Shown here: in pieces, positions 3,283 to 22,324 of the stretch | Layout: each line of letters starts with the position of its first letter | Numbering within the stretch: position 1 is the stretch's first letter | DNA from: Thermoplasmata archaeon | GTDB lineage: Archaea > Thermoplasmatota > Thermoplasmata > Lutacidiplasmatales > UBA184 | Length of the DNA: 43,441 nucleotides | Direction of reading: 5' to 3' | NCBI GenBank assembly: GCA_049582265.1 | Contig: JBAUTP010000099.1 | Span: forward strand, 1 to 43,441 | Translations under genes and position numbers: made by a program | The notes under the pieces: model-generated | The model's input: the letters and a program-made list of their open reading frames with translations, nothing else | Database searches by the model: none | What the model was told of the DNA's origin: nothing

Positions 3283-3320
3283 ATCGAAGCCCGCGTCGCG
3301 TCCCCGCTCCCAGAACCCCC

Positions 3321-3327
3321 AAATAGG
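3321..3327 (+). promoter_or_regulatory. TATA-like box (AAATAGG) about 27 nt upstream of the tRNA 5' end
   Basis: An A/T-rich heptamer in a GC-rich spacer. Its distance to the mature tRNA 5' end (3351) matches the usual archaeal TATA-to-TSS spacing. Confidence 0.3.
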
Positions 3328-3350: not shown

Positions 3351-3452
3351 GGGCTTGTAGGGTAGTCTGGACTATCCTTTTGGCCTTCGAAGCCAAAGAC
3401 CTGGGTTCGAATCCGCCGGGCCCACCCGGCGGCGGAACTCCCAGCAAGCCCG
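3351..3452 (+). tRNA. tRNA-Arg (anticodon UCG) interrupted by a 27-nt non-canonical intron in the T-loop/T-stem junction
   Basis: Perfect 7-bp acceptor stem (GGGCTTG 3351-3357 / CAAGCCC 3445-3451) with discriminator G at 3452. U8 A9 present. D-arm with A14, G18 G19 and A21. Anticodon stem TTGGC/GCCAA with loop CTTCGAA (U33, anticodon TCG, A37). T-stem CTGGG (3401-3405) pairs perfectly with CCCAG (3440-3444). T-loop TTCGAAT (3406-3412) is followed by the insert 3413-3439, which contains an 8-bp hairpin CCGCCGGG/CCCGGCGG. CCA is not encoded. Confidence 0.8.
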
Positions 3453-3469: not shown

Positions 3470-3772
3470 TCAGCGGAAGTAACCCTGGCTCACCGAGGCG
3501 TCGGCTCGGTGCTCCTCTTCGGCCTTGGCCGCCTCCAGGATGTCGATCGCAAACACGGCGTTGAGGGGAATGAGTCGGATGCGGCCCCGATCTGGCTCCT
3601 CCGCGAGCTCAAGGGCCAAGGAGTTGTCCCCCCCGACGGAAACCAGACCGCGGAAGATGCCGCTCGACACCAACGCGGTGTCACGGTCCCCGGCGGAGTG
3701 CACGCGGATCTTCGAGTTAGGGACGAGGTTGAGCGCTGGCTTCTTGGGGGTCGCGGTCGCCTGGGCGCTCAT
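3470..3772 (-). CDS. hypothetical protein (100 aa), translationally coupled to the upstream wHTH regulator
   Basis: Its ATG overlaps the stop of the 3769.. gene (ATGA). No family recognised by eye. Beta-rich core with an acidic C-terminal helix. Confidence 0.5.
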   Translation of the reverse strand: MSAQATATPKKPALNLVPNSKIRVHSAGDRDTALVSSGIFRGLVSVGGDNSLALELAEEPDRGRIRLIPLNAVFAIDILEAAKAEEEHRADASVSQGYFR

Positions 3773-4287
3773 GGTTTTGCCCCTCGTTCGCGAATGACCG
3801 TCCGTGCGGTTGAGGCCCTCGGTGCGAGTTCGTTCCGACGTGTCTCCAGTAAGCCTTGCAAGTGATTCACCGTTTCCCGGTACCGCCGAAGAGCATTCTG
3901 GGCATTGGCCTCGGTGAAGTCCCAGGCCCGTGCGAGGTTACCGTACCGTAGTCGGTACCCCTTGCGCCCCTTGCCGTCAGCGACACCGCCTACCTCCTCG
4001 AGTAAATCGAGGGACTTGAGCTTGTTGATGTGACGATACACCGTGGGCTTGGTGGTCTTGAGACCCGCCGCGAGCTGTTCGACGTACCACACTTCCTGAG
4101 GAGCGAGCAAGAAACAATCGCGGAACAGTCGATAGGCGAGGCTCTGCGCTACCGGCCCCTCTCGTCCACGCCCATCCGGCCCTTCGGGTAGATAGCCAAT
4201 CAATCGAAGGAATTCCGTGAGCACCTCGTCAAGATCCGGGATGGGTGACAGCGGGGTGCTGTAGCGCACAAACAGTTCGAAAGGCAT
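3769..4287 (-). CDS. winged-helix (ArsR/TrmB-like) transcriptional regulator
   Basis: HTH segment 'LKTTKPTVYRHINKLKSLDLLEEV'. I prefer the start at M54 of the 225-aa ORF (ATG 4287) because the longer form overlaps the divergent gene that starts at 4383. Confidence 0.6.
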   Translation of the reverse strand: MPFELFVRYSTPLSPIPDLDEVLTEFLRLIGYLPEGPDGRGREGPVAQSLAYRLFRDCFLLAPQEVWYVEQLAAGLKTTKPTVYRHINKLKSLDLLEEVGGVADGKGRKGYRLRYGNLARAWDFTEANAQNALRRYRETVNHLQGLLETRRNELAPRASTARTVIRERGAKP

Positions 4288-4382
4288 GGACGAGACGGGC
4301 CAAGCGGTTCCGTCCCTAAATACAAACGGGGTTGGCCCAGGGAGGTCACCGCTTTTAGCCGAACCTTCTGTGCCTCGATACC

Positions 4383-5246
4383 ATGGCGTTCGTTCTGAAG
4401 ACGCCGAGGTCACCGCGCGAGGCGTTTTCCCTCGCGCGAGCCTCACCGGACGGCGCCTTCGCCGTTCTTGCCGGGGGTACCGACCTCCTGCTCGACATCG
4501 ACGACCGACGGATCTCTCCCTCGGTCGTGCTCTCGCTCCGCAAGATGCCGTGGAAACAGCTCGTGTGGGCGGGTGACCAGCTCACGATAGGGAGCACACT
4601 ACCGCTACGCGAGCTCGAGCTGGACCGTCGGGTCCGAGAGCGATCACCGGGCCTTTGGCAGTCCATCCGCGCCGTGGGGAGCGTCGCGCTTCGCCATCGT
4701 GCCACGTTGGGGGGAAATCTCGGACGCGCTTCGCCCGCCTCTGACCTCATTCCGATCCTGCTCGCCCTCGACGCGTCCGTCGAGCTCGTCGGCCCCAAGG
4801 GCGAGCGCGAACTCCCCCTGGCCGAGTTCATCCAGGGGCCTCGACAGACCGCGCTCCTCTCGGGCGAGCTCATCCGCGCGGTGACGATCCCTGAGGTAGG
4901 TCCGTCCGAATATTCCTGGCAGCGCGTGCGTCCGGCCGGGGACATTTCGCAAGTGGGGGTCGCGGTCACGTGCGCCGCTCGTCCTCCCTACTGGCGGCTC
5001 GCGCTGGGCGGTGTGTGGCCCTGTCCCCAGCGAGTCCCGACCGCGGAACGTATTCTGACCTCTCAACGCCCATCCGAGGTGGAGATCGAGCTCGCCGCCC
5101 AAGAGGCCGCCCAGGTCGCTCCGTTCATTACCGACCGCCGTGCCACGGAGGCATACCGAAGGCGACTGGTCACTACCCTGTTGCGCCGTGCCATCGGAGC
5201 GACCGTACTCCAAGTCCGGCAGCGAAAGGAGAATCCCCGCTCATGA
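4383..5246 (+). CDS. molybdenum hydroxylase (xanthine dehydrogenase/CoxM family) FAD-binding subunit
   Basis: 'LAGGTDLLLDI' FAD-binding motif and a CO dehydrogenase flavoprotein-like C-terminus. It is followed by the 2Fe-2S and Mo subunits with ATGA overlaps. Confidence 0.8.
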   Translation: MAFVLKTPRSPREAFSLARASPDGAFAVLAGGTDLLLDIDDRRISPSVVLSLRKMPWKQLVWAGDQLTIGSTLPLRELELDRRVRERSPGLWQSIRAVGSVALRHRATLGGNLGRASPASDLIPILLALDASVELVGPKGERELPLAEFIQGPRQTALLSGELIRAVTIPEVGPSEYSWQRVRPAGDISQVGVAVTCAARPPYWRLALGGVWPCPQRVPTAERILTSQRPSEVEIELAAQEAAQVAPFITDRRATEAYRRRLVTTLLRRAIGATVLQVRQRKENPRS

Positions 5247-19546: not shown

Positions 19547-22324
19547 CTACGAGCAACCGCTCGTCGAGCCGCACACGGTGCAGGCGTAACAGGTGCCCGA
19601 ACGGACCATGATGCCGCCGCAGAGGTAACAGCTGGGGGCGTCCTCGCTGATGCCGCCGCCCGTTCCGGACCCCACGAACGCTTCCAAGGAACGCGTGCCG
19701 AAGGTGGAGGGAGCCACCGGGTCCGACTTCGCGGGCGTCGTGCTGCCGTTCTGCCCATTCGTCTCGCTGTTCCCTTCGAGGCCGATGGCCCTGCGCTCCT
19801 CCTCGGTGAGGAATTCCAGCGCCAGCCAGCGCGCCACGTAGTCAGGGATGGATTTGGCGAAGCGGATCTTCGGGTTGTTGGTCGCTCCCGCCGGCTCGAA
19901 ACGCATGTGGGCGAGCTTCCGTACGAGGTCCTTGAGTGGTACACCATGCTGGAGGGCCATGGACATGGAGATCCCTAACGAATCCATGAGTCCGTTGACG
20001 GTGGACCCTTCCTTCGTGACGAGGAAGAACACTTCGCCGGGGCGGCCATCCGGGTAGAGACCCACGGTCACGTACCCTTTGTGACCACCGACCTGGAAGT
20101 GGTGGGTGATCGCCTTCCGGTCATCGGGAAGCTTCTCACGGATTGGCGCGCGAGCCGCACCCGCGACCCCGGACTTTCCCTTCCCTGTCTCGTAGGGTTG
20201 CGAGGCTTTGCAGCCGTCACGATAGAGTGCGACCGACTTGATGCCCATGCGCCAGGCCTCCAGATAGATCTTCTCGATGTCCTCGACCGTCGCTTCGTTG
20301 GGGAGGTTGATCGTCTTGGATGCGCCGCCGGAGAGGAACGGCTGGACCGCCCCCAACATCCGAAGGTGGCCGGTCGGGGAGATCGTGCGGTTCCCGCCCA
20401 TCGGAGCGAGCGCGCAGTCGAACACCGAGAGATGCTCGGAGGCGAGTCCGGGGGCACCCTCGATCGTTCCGGTCGACTCCATGTAGCGGCTGATCTGGGT
20501 GATCTGTTCGGGGGTATAGCCGAGCGTCACGAGGCCGTCCTCCACGCTTCGGTTGACCATGCGCATCGTGCCGCCGCCGACCAGGTTTTTGATCTTGACG
20601 AGCGAGAGCTCGGGTTCGAGACCCAAGGTGTCGCATCCCATGAGAAGGCCGATGGTCCCGGTCGGAGCGATGACCGAGATCTGGGCGTTGCGGTAGCCCC
20701 ACAATTCCCCCGCCTTCACGGTGTCGCGCCAGCGGTCGACGGCGGCTGTAACGTAGCTCGTGAGTCGAGCATCGTCCGTGGGGATGCGTTCCGACGCGGC
20801 GAGGTGTTTTCCCATCACCCGAAGCATCGGGGAACGATTGCGGTCGAACCCCGGGAACGGACCCATCCGCTTCGCGATCTCCGCGGACATGTGGTATCCT
20901 TCGGCGGAGAGGAAGGCCGAGATCGCCGCGGCGAGGGTCCGGCCCGCATCGGAATCGTACGGAAGACCATAATGCATCGCGAGTGCGCCCAGGTTAGCAT
21001 AGCCCAATCCCAACGGTCGGAAGTCGTGCGAGTTCTGAGCAATGGGGGCGGTCGGATAGCTCGAGGCGTCAACCAGGATCTCCATCGCGAGTGCCATCGT
21101 GCGAACCGCATCGCGGAAGAGCTCGAGGTTGAAGCGGTGCTGACCATCCAAGAACTTGAGGAGGTTGATGGAGGCGAGATTGCACGCGGTATCATCGAGG
21201 AAGAGGTACTCGCTGCAGGGGTTCGACGCGTTGATCCGACCCGACATCGGGGACGTGTGCCAGTCGTTGGTGATATCGTCGAACTGCACTCCGGGGTCTC
21301 CGCATCGCCACGCGGCGTAGGCAAGCTTGCGCCAAAGGTCCCGCGCCTGGAACGTCGCCGCGACCGCATGGTCGGTCCGGTGGTAGGTCTTCCAGGTGCC
21401 TCCCTGCAGAACGGCCTCCATGAACGCGTCCGGAATGCGGACGGAATGGTTCGCGTTCTGGTAGGCGATGGAGGCGTAGGCGGAGTCCGCGTCCGTCCCG
21501 TCGAAATTGGAGGAAAAGCCTTCGCGAATGAGCGCTTGGGCCTTGTCTTCCTCGCGGACCTTGCACTCGATGAAGTCGACGATGTCGGGATGGTCGAGGT
21601 TCAGGATGACCATCTTCGCCGCGCGTCGCGTCGTGCCACCGGATTTGATGACACCGGCCATCGCGTCGAACGCACGCATGAACGAGACTGGTCCCGAGGC
21701 GATTCCCCCGCCGCTGAGTCGTTCGTGGCTCCCGCGTAGCGCGGAGAGGTTGGAGCCCGTGCCACTTCCTCCCTTGAAGAGGCGTCCCTCGCTCGTAGCG
21801 AGCTGAAGGATCGAATCCATGTCGTCCTGGACGGACTGGATGAAGCAGGCAGAACACTGCGGAGGGTGGCGGACACCAACGTTGAACCAGACCGGGCTGT
21901 TGAACGCGGCCATCTGCTGGACCATGAGGTAGCTGAGACTCTCCTCGAGCTGGGTTGATTCTTCGGAGGTATCGAAGTAGCCGAGCTCGAGACCCTTTTC
22001 GGCGATCCAGTGGCAGACGCGCCGGATCATCCCGTCGACGGAGTCCTCGCGCCGGCCGCCGATGACGCGGAAGTACTTCGACGCGGCGATGTTGACCGAA
22101 TTCTCGGACCACGTCGTCGGCGCGCGGATGCCCTTCTGCTCGAAGATGACCTTTCCTTCGGCGTTCTTGATGATCGCGTCATGCAGACGCCAGCTGATGG
22201 TGTCGAAGGCGGTCTTTCCGCGCGGCACCAGGCGCGGAACCGGAATCGGTTCACGACCATTCCTAACGCTGGGGCGTGCGGAATCGTCCGGGGTGATCTG
22301 TGGGCGTTTGCGAGCTACTGCCAT
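19547..22324 (-). CDS. nrdJ: adenosylcobalamin-dependent (class II) ribonucleotide reductase
   Basis: 925 aa. 'NPCSEYLFLDDTACNLASINL' active-site region, 'GGTTRRAAKM', 'GLGYANLG'. C-terminal Cys-rich tail 'CYLCGG...CYACTVCGSTSGCS'. No intein-sized insertion. Confidence 0.9.
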   Translation of the reverse strand: MAVARKRPQITPDDSARPSVRNGREPIPVPRLVPRGKTAFDTISWRLHDAIIKNAEGKVIFEQKGIRAPTTWSENSVNIAASKYFRVIGGRREDSVDGMIRRVCHWIAEKGLELGYFDTSEESTQLEESLSYLMVQQMAAFNSPVWFNVGVRHPPQCSACFIQSVQDDMDSILQLATSEGRLFKGGSGTGSNLSALRGSHERLSGGGIASGPVSFMRAFDAMAGVIKSGGTTRRAAKMVILNLDHPDIVDFIECKVREEDKAQALIREGFSSNFDGTDADSAYASIAYQNANHSVRIPDAFMEAVLQGGTWKTYHRTDHAVAATFQARDLWRKLAYAAWRCGDPGVQFDDITNDWHTSPMSGRINASNPCSEYLFLDDTACNLASINLLKFLDGQHRFNLELFRDAVRTMALAMEILVDASSYPTAPIAQNSHDFRPLGLGYANLGALAMHYGLPYDSDAGRTLAAAISAFLSAEGYHMSAEIAKRMGPFPGFDRNRSPMLRVMGKHLAASERIPTDDARLTSYVTAAVDRWRDTVKAGELWGYRNAQISVIAPTGTIGLLMGCDTLGLEPELSLVKIKNLVGGGTMRMVNRSVEDGLVTLGYTPEQITQISRYMESTGTIEGAPGLASEHLSVFDCALAPMGGNRTISPTGHLRMLGAVQPFLSGGASKTINLPNEATVEDIEKIYLEAWRMGIKSVALYRDGCKASQPYETGKGKSGVAGAARAPIREKLPDDRKAITHHFQVGGHKGYVTVGLYPDGRPGEVFFLVTKEGSTVNGLMDSLGISMSMALQHGVPLKDLVRKLAHMRFEPAGATNNPKIRFAKSIPDYVARWLALEFLTEEERRAIGLEGNSETNGQNGSTTPAKSDPVAPSTFGTRSLEAFVGSGTGGGISEDAPSCYLCGGIMVRSGTCYACTVCGSTSGCS

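Follow-up and report, generated by a model that had tools for sequence, protein, structure and literature searches.

A tRNA-Arg(UCG) gene interrupted in the T-loop in an uncultured soil archaeon of the Lutacidiplasmatales

We analyzed a stretch of 43,441 nt (the window; contig JBAUTP010000099.1 of assembly GCA_049582265.1) from an uncultured soil archaeon of the order Lutacidiplasmatales (Thermoplasmata), formerly known as TMEG (PMC9287336). We could confirm that positions 3351-3452 of its plus strand are a genuine tRNA-Arg(UCG) gene that is interrupted in the T-loop. Read from 3351, the gene runs GGGCTTG-TA-GGGT...TCCT-T-TTGGC-CTTCGAA-GCCAA-AGAC-CTGGG-TTCGAA, followed by 27 inserted bases and then T-CCCAG-CAAGCCC-G. 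When these 27 nt were removed in silico, we obtained a 75-nt tRNA-Arg(UCG) whose 7-bp acceptor stem (GGGCUUG/CAAGCCC) is perfectly paired; its T-stem (CUGGG/CCCAG) has 5 bp, its T-loop reads UUCGAAU, and G3452 is the discriminator. The initial annotation, made by eye, had claimed that the cloverleaf closes only upon removal of 27 nt from the T-arm, leaving a perfect 7-bp acceptor stem, the T-stem CTGGG/CCCAG, and the T-loop TTCGAAT, all of which in-silico splicing bears out. The parts of the gene, and a box upstream of it, are as follows (window positions).

3312-3325, plus strand: promoter-like box, a purine-rich AGAAC and then a TATA-like CAAATA (3320-3325); ends 26 nt before the tRNA
3351-3452, plus strand: tRNA-Arg(UCG) gene, intron included; 102 nt, without encoded CCA
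3351-3411, plus strand: 5' exon, 61 nt; cloverleaf from ARAGORN on the spliced sequence
3351-3357, plus strand: acceptor 5' strand, within the 5' exon; acceptor 100% paired
3360-3378, plus strand: D-arm, within the 5' exon
3380-3396, plus strand: anticodon arm, with the anticodon TCG at 3387-3389; stem with two covarying pairs
3401-3405, plus strand: T-stem 5' strand, CUGGG, within the 5' exon
3406-3411, plus strand: T-loop U54-A59, within the 5' exon
3439-3452, plus strand: 3' exon, 14 nt; U60, the 3' strands of T-stem and acceptor, and the discriminator
3440-3444, plus strand: T-stem 3' strand, CCCAG
3445-3451, plus strand: acceptor 3' strand, CAAGCCC, with the discriminator G3452 next

The upstream box recurs as GGAAC-N3-5-CCAAATA (CCATATA in one case) at a constant upstream distance in 23/23 of the species aligned below, within a spacer that is otherwise variable. 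It fits BRE/TATA elements and is likely to act as an archaeal promoter. Codons that the tRNA would read are common nearby, CGA and CGG making up 48 of the 92 Arg codons (52%) in the adjacent gene for the PolD large subunit. Immediately downstream of the tRNA gene lies an ORF of 100 aa (3470-3772, minus strand) without Pfam match. Most of the 23 relatives have the end of this ORF, stop codon included (AGCGGAAGTA on the plus strand), at the corresponding position, so that we probably have a genuine small gene in conserved synteny. The gene that follows it (3769-4446, minus strand) encodes an ArsR/HTH_20-type regulator.

The initial annotation stated that a strict hBHBh' motif could not be drawn by eye. 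We found instead that the minimum-free-energy fold of the local segment 3400-3445 is a strict 3-4-3 hBHBh', with two 3-nt bulges on opposite strands, a 4-bp helix between them, and both of the flanking helices h and h'. It comprises the following elements, in which a slash marks the predicted cut.

3412-3438, plus strand: BHB intron at tRNA position 59/60; 27 nt, consisting of U, the hairpin CCGCCGGG-CCCA-CCCGGCGG, CGGA, and AC
3401-3405 and 3440-3444, plus strand: outer helix h, CUGGG/CCCAG, which is the T-stem
3406-3409, plus strand: central-helix strand H, UUCG, which is T-loop nt 54-57; its partner is CGGA at 3433-3436
3410-3412, plus strand: 5' bulge AA/U, predicted cut after A3411
3413-3432, plus strand: inner helix h', the 8-bp GC hairpin with a CCCA loop that the initial annotation had also read in the insert; pair probability 0.98
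3413-3420 and 3425-3432, plus strand: the two inner-helix strands, CCGCCGGG and CCCGGCGG
3433-3436, plus strand: central-helix strand H', CGGA, on the intron side
3437-3439, plus strand: 3' bulge AC/U, predicted cut after C3438; U3439 becomes U60

When the whole precursor is folded thermodynamically, a non-tRNA structure (-53.5 kcal/mol) comes out ahead of the cloverleaf plus BHB (-44.5 kcal/mol), and the T-stem and central-helix pairs receive a probability of only 0.15-0.31. Since full-length folding misses the cloverleaf, we based our reading on covariation and the local fold.

The archaeal splicing endonuclease cuts after the second nucleotide of each bulge. Applied to the geometry of the motif, this rule places the intron at 3412-3438, at tRNA position 59/60. 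Within the window, four registers (3412-3438, 3413-3439, 3414-3440, and 3415-3441) lead to the identical 75-nt product, which accounts for the ambiguity of the junction that the initial annotation had correctly ascribed to sequence redundancy. Its insert, given as about 3413-3439, has the right length of 27 nt and leaves the same mature RNA, but the motif puts it one base farther to the left; likewise, its junction at 60/61 has to be replaced by 59/60, which is selected by BHB geometry as well as by comparative data. Across species, the base after A59 can be U, A, C, or G, but behind the 3' cut there is always a U, which fixes the register at 59/60. Since the third base of the 5' bulge (3412) varies among species, it belongs to the intron.

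We searched 40 related genomes by BLAST with the 102-nt gene; full-length matches, with 82-90% identity, came from 22 congeneric genomes besides its own. Base pairs were counted in an alignment of these 23 sequences, using 500 shuffles as a control. In 23/23 orthologues the insert is in the same place, with a length of 23-34 nt and differing hairpin sequences, and in-silico splicing at 59/60 produces a uniform 75-nt tRNA-Arg(UCG). The cloverleaf-plus-BHB structure has 96.9% of cells paired, compared to 89.2% in the shuffles, of which 0/500 reached the observed value. Twelve pairs show changes on both sides, including 8/8 hairpin pairs that covary, and the T-stem, whose pairs form across the intron, shows two compensatory changes (CG to GC and UA to CG). 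When the partners were slid by 1-3 columns, pairing fell to 36-52%. The central helix has 98.9% of cells paired in the 23 species, and the ACU of the 3' bulge is invariant in these BLAST-found orthologues.

A pattern scan of 185,579 species genomes returned at least 119 loci, at least 118 of them in archaeal MAGs. Because ACU was demanded by the scan pattern, this set is uninformative on conservation of the 3' bulge. The archaeal matches listed, from at least 118 species-level MAGs, are titled Thermoplasmata and have soil, peat, and acid-sulfate soil sources. Among them are "Ca. Lutacidiplasma silvani AcS3-62" and one "Ca. Lutacidiplasmatales archaeon", which places the host within or close to the order Lutacidiplasmatales. 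One match, in an "Acidobacteriaceae" MAG (L059), lies inside the 3' end of a bacterial-type tRNA and is a chance hit, not a homologue. Among the 119 loci listed, the central helix has 4/4 pairs in 117, the T-stem has 5/5 pairs in all, and H' is CGGA or CGAA in 114. Introns in this set are 23-38 nt long, with 113 distinct intron cores as against 29 distinct mature sequences. Judged by these alignments, the exons are nearly frozen and the intron is free to vary apart from its shape. In four other families of Thermoplasmata, tRNA-Arg(UCG) is intron-less, and its continuous T-arm (e.g., CGGGG-TTCGAAT-CCCCG) corresponds, position for position, to the predicted splice product.

Two families of the same order carry the gene in other forms. 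In the sister family f3 (L029/G026 and L030/G028; AT-rich), tRNA-Arg(UCG) is interrupted twice, by an intron in the anticodon loop and by an insert of 11-13 nt at 59/60. This insert reads CCGGG UUCA AA/A GUGAAC UGAA AA/U CCCGG and, being without inner helix, is of the loop type (BHL/hBH-like). In family f2 (L170/G029 and L171/G027), the 5' half of tRNA-Arg(UCG) gives way, directly behind the anticodon loop, to >170 nt of sequence with repeats; in L170, GGGTGAGGGTACCGTAGGGA occurs twice there. Such a gene could have a very long intron or could be split.

How else might the locus be explained? ARAGORN reports an intron-less tRNA-Arg(UCG) at 3351-3426 and Rfam reports one at 3351-3424, with 39.2 bits and thus above the gathering score of 29, so that the gene could be an ordinary intron-less tRNA-Arg(UCG) ending at 3424/3426, with only spacer downstream. 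Both programs take CGGGCCC (3417-3423) as the acceptor 3' strand, with which GGGCUUG can indeed pair via two G-U pairs. However, this borrowed segment is half of the intron hairpin and is unconserved, whereas CAAGCCC-G pairs perfectly and is invariant in all 23 orthologues. In an intron-less gene, a 5-bp T-stem and a 7-nt T-loop are directly followed by the acceptor 3' strand, but in the called version the T-stem is gone, CCGC alone faces CUGGG, and several T-arm pairs are non-standard according to Rfam. Its 39 bits compare with 51-72 bits for uninterrupted tRNAs of the same genome, and on unspliced orthologues the ends called by ARAGORN shift between species, with no call in 7/23. We consider an intron-less gene highly improbable. 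The initial annotation had warned that standard callers may mis-call this gene, and the wrong 3' end given by both ARAGORN and Rfam proves it right. We give equally little credence to a decaying pseudogene, i.e., a tRNA-Arg gene disrupted by an insertion and out of use. An incomplete MAG could hide another copy, and this one is 85% complete; in the assembly, no second tRNA-Arg(UCG) was found by ARAGORN, Rfam, or BLAST, which bears on the question of another copy that the initial annotation had raised. BLAST of the gene against its own genome hits, besides itself, just Arg(GCG) on contig C161, and an ARAGORN call of a second Arg(UCG) at C149:839-908 is a false positive that lacks the T-loop consensus, has mismatched stems, and is missing from the Rfam list. 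Moreover, at least 118 species retain the gene, with 29 exon variants, and while the insert changes, the strict BHB is kept by compensation; a dead gene would not keep up the motif. The genome is also rich in CGA/CGG codons, and the promoter-like upstream box is conserved.

A real intron could also be cut in another register, such as 60/61, or be removed by something besides a BHB endonuclease. The four registers give the same mature sequence, and the window DNA alone cannot separate them. Yet only 59/60 has both cuts after the second base of 3-nt bulges around a 4-bp helix. At 60/61, moreover, the base after A59, which is A in 69 of the 119 loci listed, would leave UUCGAAA directly before CCCAG, with loss of the invariant U. 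As for removal of another kind, 27 nt are far too short for self-splicing, since group I and group II introns have a catalytic RNA core of hundreds of nt, and a scan of the window with Rfam at gathering scores gives only the tRNA, with no intron hit. We regard both variants as unlikely, and proceed with a BHB intron at 59/60 of a functional tRNA-Arg(UCG) gene.

We next consider how widespread such introns are. We listed BHB candidates in a SPLITS-like scan of the genome, spliced them out in silico, and ran ARAGORN again, and we built a covariance model, R1, from the interrupted T-arm. Introns at 59/60 were found in at least eight tRNA genes: Arg(UCG), Arg(UCU), Gln(CUG), Asn(GUU), Asp(GUC), Glu(CUC), Lys(UUU), and Leu(UAG). 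Predicted introns also lie in the D-loop/D-arm, those of Pro(UGG), Arg(GCG), Lys(UUU), and Leu(UAG) being in the D-loop.

C31:2070-2103, plus strand: Gln(CUG) 59/60 intron, from scan/R1
C40:449-481, minus strand: Asn(GUU) 59/60 intron, from scan/R1
C257:3541-3570, plus strand: Asp(GUC) 59/60 intron, from scan/R1
C308:1662-1691, minus strand: Glu(CUC) 59/60 intron, from scan/R1
C64:837-874, minus strand: Lys(UUU) 59/60 intron, from scan/R1
C323:2798-2829, plus strand: Arg(UCU) 59/60 intron, 3/4 central-helix pairs
C31:2241-2272, plus strand: Leu(UAG) 59/60 intron, 3/4 central-helix pairs
C121:1504-1539, plus strand: Pro(UGG) BHB-type intron in the D-loop/D-arm
C161:1960-1993, plus strand: Arg(GCG) BHB-type intron in the D-loop/D-arm
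C64: Lys(UUU) intron in the D-loop/D-arm, 33-nt insert
C31: Leu(UAG) intron in the D-loop/D-arm, 27-nt insert
C218:2477-2513: Met intron in the D-loop/D-arm, register doubtful

The seven siblings of the Arg(UCG) intron are 30-38 nt long and share one layout, consisting of T-stem, UUCR, AA/N, hairpin, YGRR, and AY/U. Lys(UUU) and Leu(UAG) have two non-canonical introns apiece. In 201 sampled genomes of the class, R1 finds 4-9 sites per genome in the genus, 2-5 in the other genera of the family, and 0-3, usually one, beyond the family. The 17 outgroup matches inspected, from 12 other families (L152-L168), are all strict 59/60 BHB introns. The Arg(UCG) intron is, on this comparative evidence, part of a genome-wide and lineage-wide set and no one-off. 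Several of the outgroup matches are in a tRNA with CAGGCCC or CGGGCCC as its acceptor 3' strand and apparently one further intron; the ARAGORN isotype calls on these matches are unreliable, and one was called 'Pyl'.

The sibling genes are poorly served by gene finders. For Asn and Arg(UCU) there are no more than partial matches to Rfam with low scores, while Asp, Lys(UUU), and Leu(UAG) are missing from both the ARAGORN and the Rfam lists. Since these programs miss or mis-end such genes, the tRNA sets of soil Thermoplasmata MAGs will look incomplete or mis-coordinated. ARAGORN run with introns allowed did not find the T-loop intron of Arg(UCG), and with unlimited intron length it made many implausible calls. 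One of them, a "tRNA-Gly(GCC)" at 20288-20634 of the window (plus strand) whose intron would span 254 nt, is probably spurious, as it has no Rfam support and disappears when introns are limited to ≤120 nt. Elsewhere, at C265:9257-9342, just upstream of endA, ARAGORN reports a 'tRNA-???' with a 2-base anticodon.

The type of splicing endonuclease, which the initial annotation had listed among the points to check, could be settled from Pfam domains and alignment. The genome has a single endonuclease gene, on contig C265. Residues 21-335 of its 353-aa product align full-length to the alpha'2 enzyme of A. fulgidus (1R0V/2GJW), with an E value of 1e-30. Pfam finds two tRNA_int_endo_N and two tRNA_int_endo domains, and by these features EndA is of the alpha'2 (two-repeat) type, with a predicted homodimeric structure. 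Y291, H299, and K330 are among the columns that are invariant in nine EndA orthologues; from the alignment with A. fulgidus EndA, we take them to be the catalytic Tyr, His, and Lys of the C-terminal repeat. The protein is gap-free relative to native A. fulgidus EndA at the point where 3P1Y, in which a Crenarchaea-specific loop was grafted onto the A. fulgidus enzyme, has ~10 extra residues. The alignment revealed no specificity-loop insert (L1/CSL, L2/ASL, or L3), whether by the catalytic His or at the C-terminus. EndA orthologues of five families, with many 59/60 introns or not, align almost without gaps, and the endonuclease of the sister family f3 is of the same alpha'2 type, without insert. 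RtcB is encoded on contig C41 (562 bits).

These components suggest a pathway in which the intron is very probably removed from a functional tRNA-Arg(UCG) precursor by the alpha'2 endonuclease and RtcB. The gene would be transcribed from its own TATA-like promoter into a 102-nt precursor, in which U54-G57 would not form a T-loop and would pair instead with CGGA of the intron in the 4-bp central helix. With the T-stem as the outer helix and the 8-bp GC hairpin of the intron as the inner helix, the bonds to be cut, after A59 and before U60, would lie exposed in the bulges AA/U and AC/U. Both bulges would be cut by the genome's one alpha'2-type endonuclease, and RtcB would join the exons. As CCA is not encoded in the gene, it would be added post-transcriptionally, presumably after splicing, and the product would be a 75-nt tRNA reading CGA/CGG. 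We infer transcription, cleavage at these bonds, ligation, and the timing relative to T-loop modification from the sequences analyzed here.

According to reviews and primary papers, alpha4 and alpha2 enzymes need a strict hBHBh', and euryarchaeal introns are single and at the canonical position only. Reviews add that the few tRNA introns of alpha4/alpha2 archaea are all at 37/38, and that disrupted tRNA genes go with specificity-loop enzymes of the (alpha-beta)2 or epsilon2 type, intron diversity having co-evolved with broad specificity. Loop-type (BHL/hBH-like) motifs are not cut by alpha'2 enzymes, per the literature. The remark in the initial annotation that such introns are uncommon in PolD-encoding, Euryarchaeota-type genomes agrees with these accounts of canonical-position introns only. 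Our literature search turned up neither a report of T-loop introns in Thermoplasmata or Lutacidiplasmatales nor an in-vitro assay of an alpha'2 enzyme with a strict 59/60 BHB; the paper naming the order gives only tRNAscan-SE counts (PMC9287336). The Arg(UCG) intron is a known kind of element that obeys the strict-motif rule and breaks the canonical-position rule. With its predicted introns, this lineage contradicts the review statement that introns of alpha4/alpha2 archaea are solely at the canonical position. Since an ordinary alpha'2 enzyme goes together with at least eight T-loop-intron genes, the position of an intron has to be considered separately from the strictness of its motif. With half of the motif supplied by the near-universal T-loop UUCGAA, a strict BHB can be carried over to the T-arm.

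It is possible, and we put it forward only tentatively, that the order-level clade of Lutacidiplasmatales and relatives acquired introns at 59/60 and at a D-loop site in numerous tRNA genes while keeping a loop-less alpha'2 enzyme, with some of its introns being non-strict. If the inserts of Arg(UCU), Leu(UAG), and family f3 are spliced, the coupling of endonuclease architecture and loops to intron diversity would be incomplete, and the alpha'2 enzyme would be less narrow than in-vitro work on the A. fulgidus enzyme suggests or would have a helper factor. The clade lends itself to testing which substrates alpha'2 enzymes are able to cut.

One close likeness is to ARMAN-2, in which 59/60 is a known non-canonical site (PMC3239211). 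Its introns have the same insertion point, use the T-loop UUCG as one strand of the central helix, and are excised by proteins, as we predict here. However, the three-unit epsilon2 enzyme of ARMAN-2, a DPANN archaeon, has a specificity loop that tolerates relaxed motifs (PMC3239211), whereas the thermoplasmatal lineage described here combines a strict intron with a two-repeat alpha'2 enzyme without such an insert. The site is also among the known non-canonical ones of Thermoproteales (Sugahara 2008 and Fujishima 2010, as cited in PMC4090602). Thermoproteales and other Crenarchaeota/Thaumarchaeota share with the present genome many genes interrupted non-canonically, 59/60 included, and fast change of intron sequence with retention of the BHB. 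They differ, by the same source, in having (alpha-beta)2 enzymes with a Crenarchaea-specific loop and many relaxed HBh'/hBH motifs, in contrast to the alpha'2 enzyme described here and to an Arg(UCG) motif that 117 of the 119 loci listed have in strict form. With the 37/38 introns of Euryarchaeota (A. fulgidus, EndA 1R0V/2GJW, and H. volcanii), the Arg(UCG) intron shares both the enzyme architecture and the strict 3-4-3 hBHBh' geometry. The difference is one of position: T-stem and T-loop here take the place of the anticodon stem and loop, and since the motif is made from them, the tRNA elbow would be impossible before splicing.
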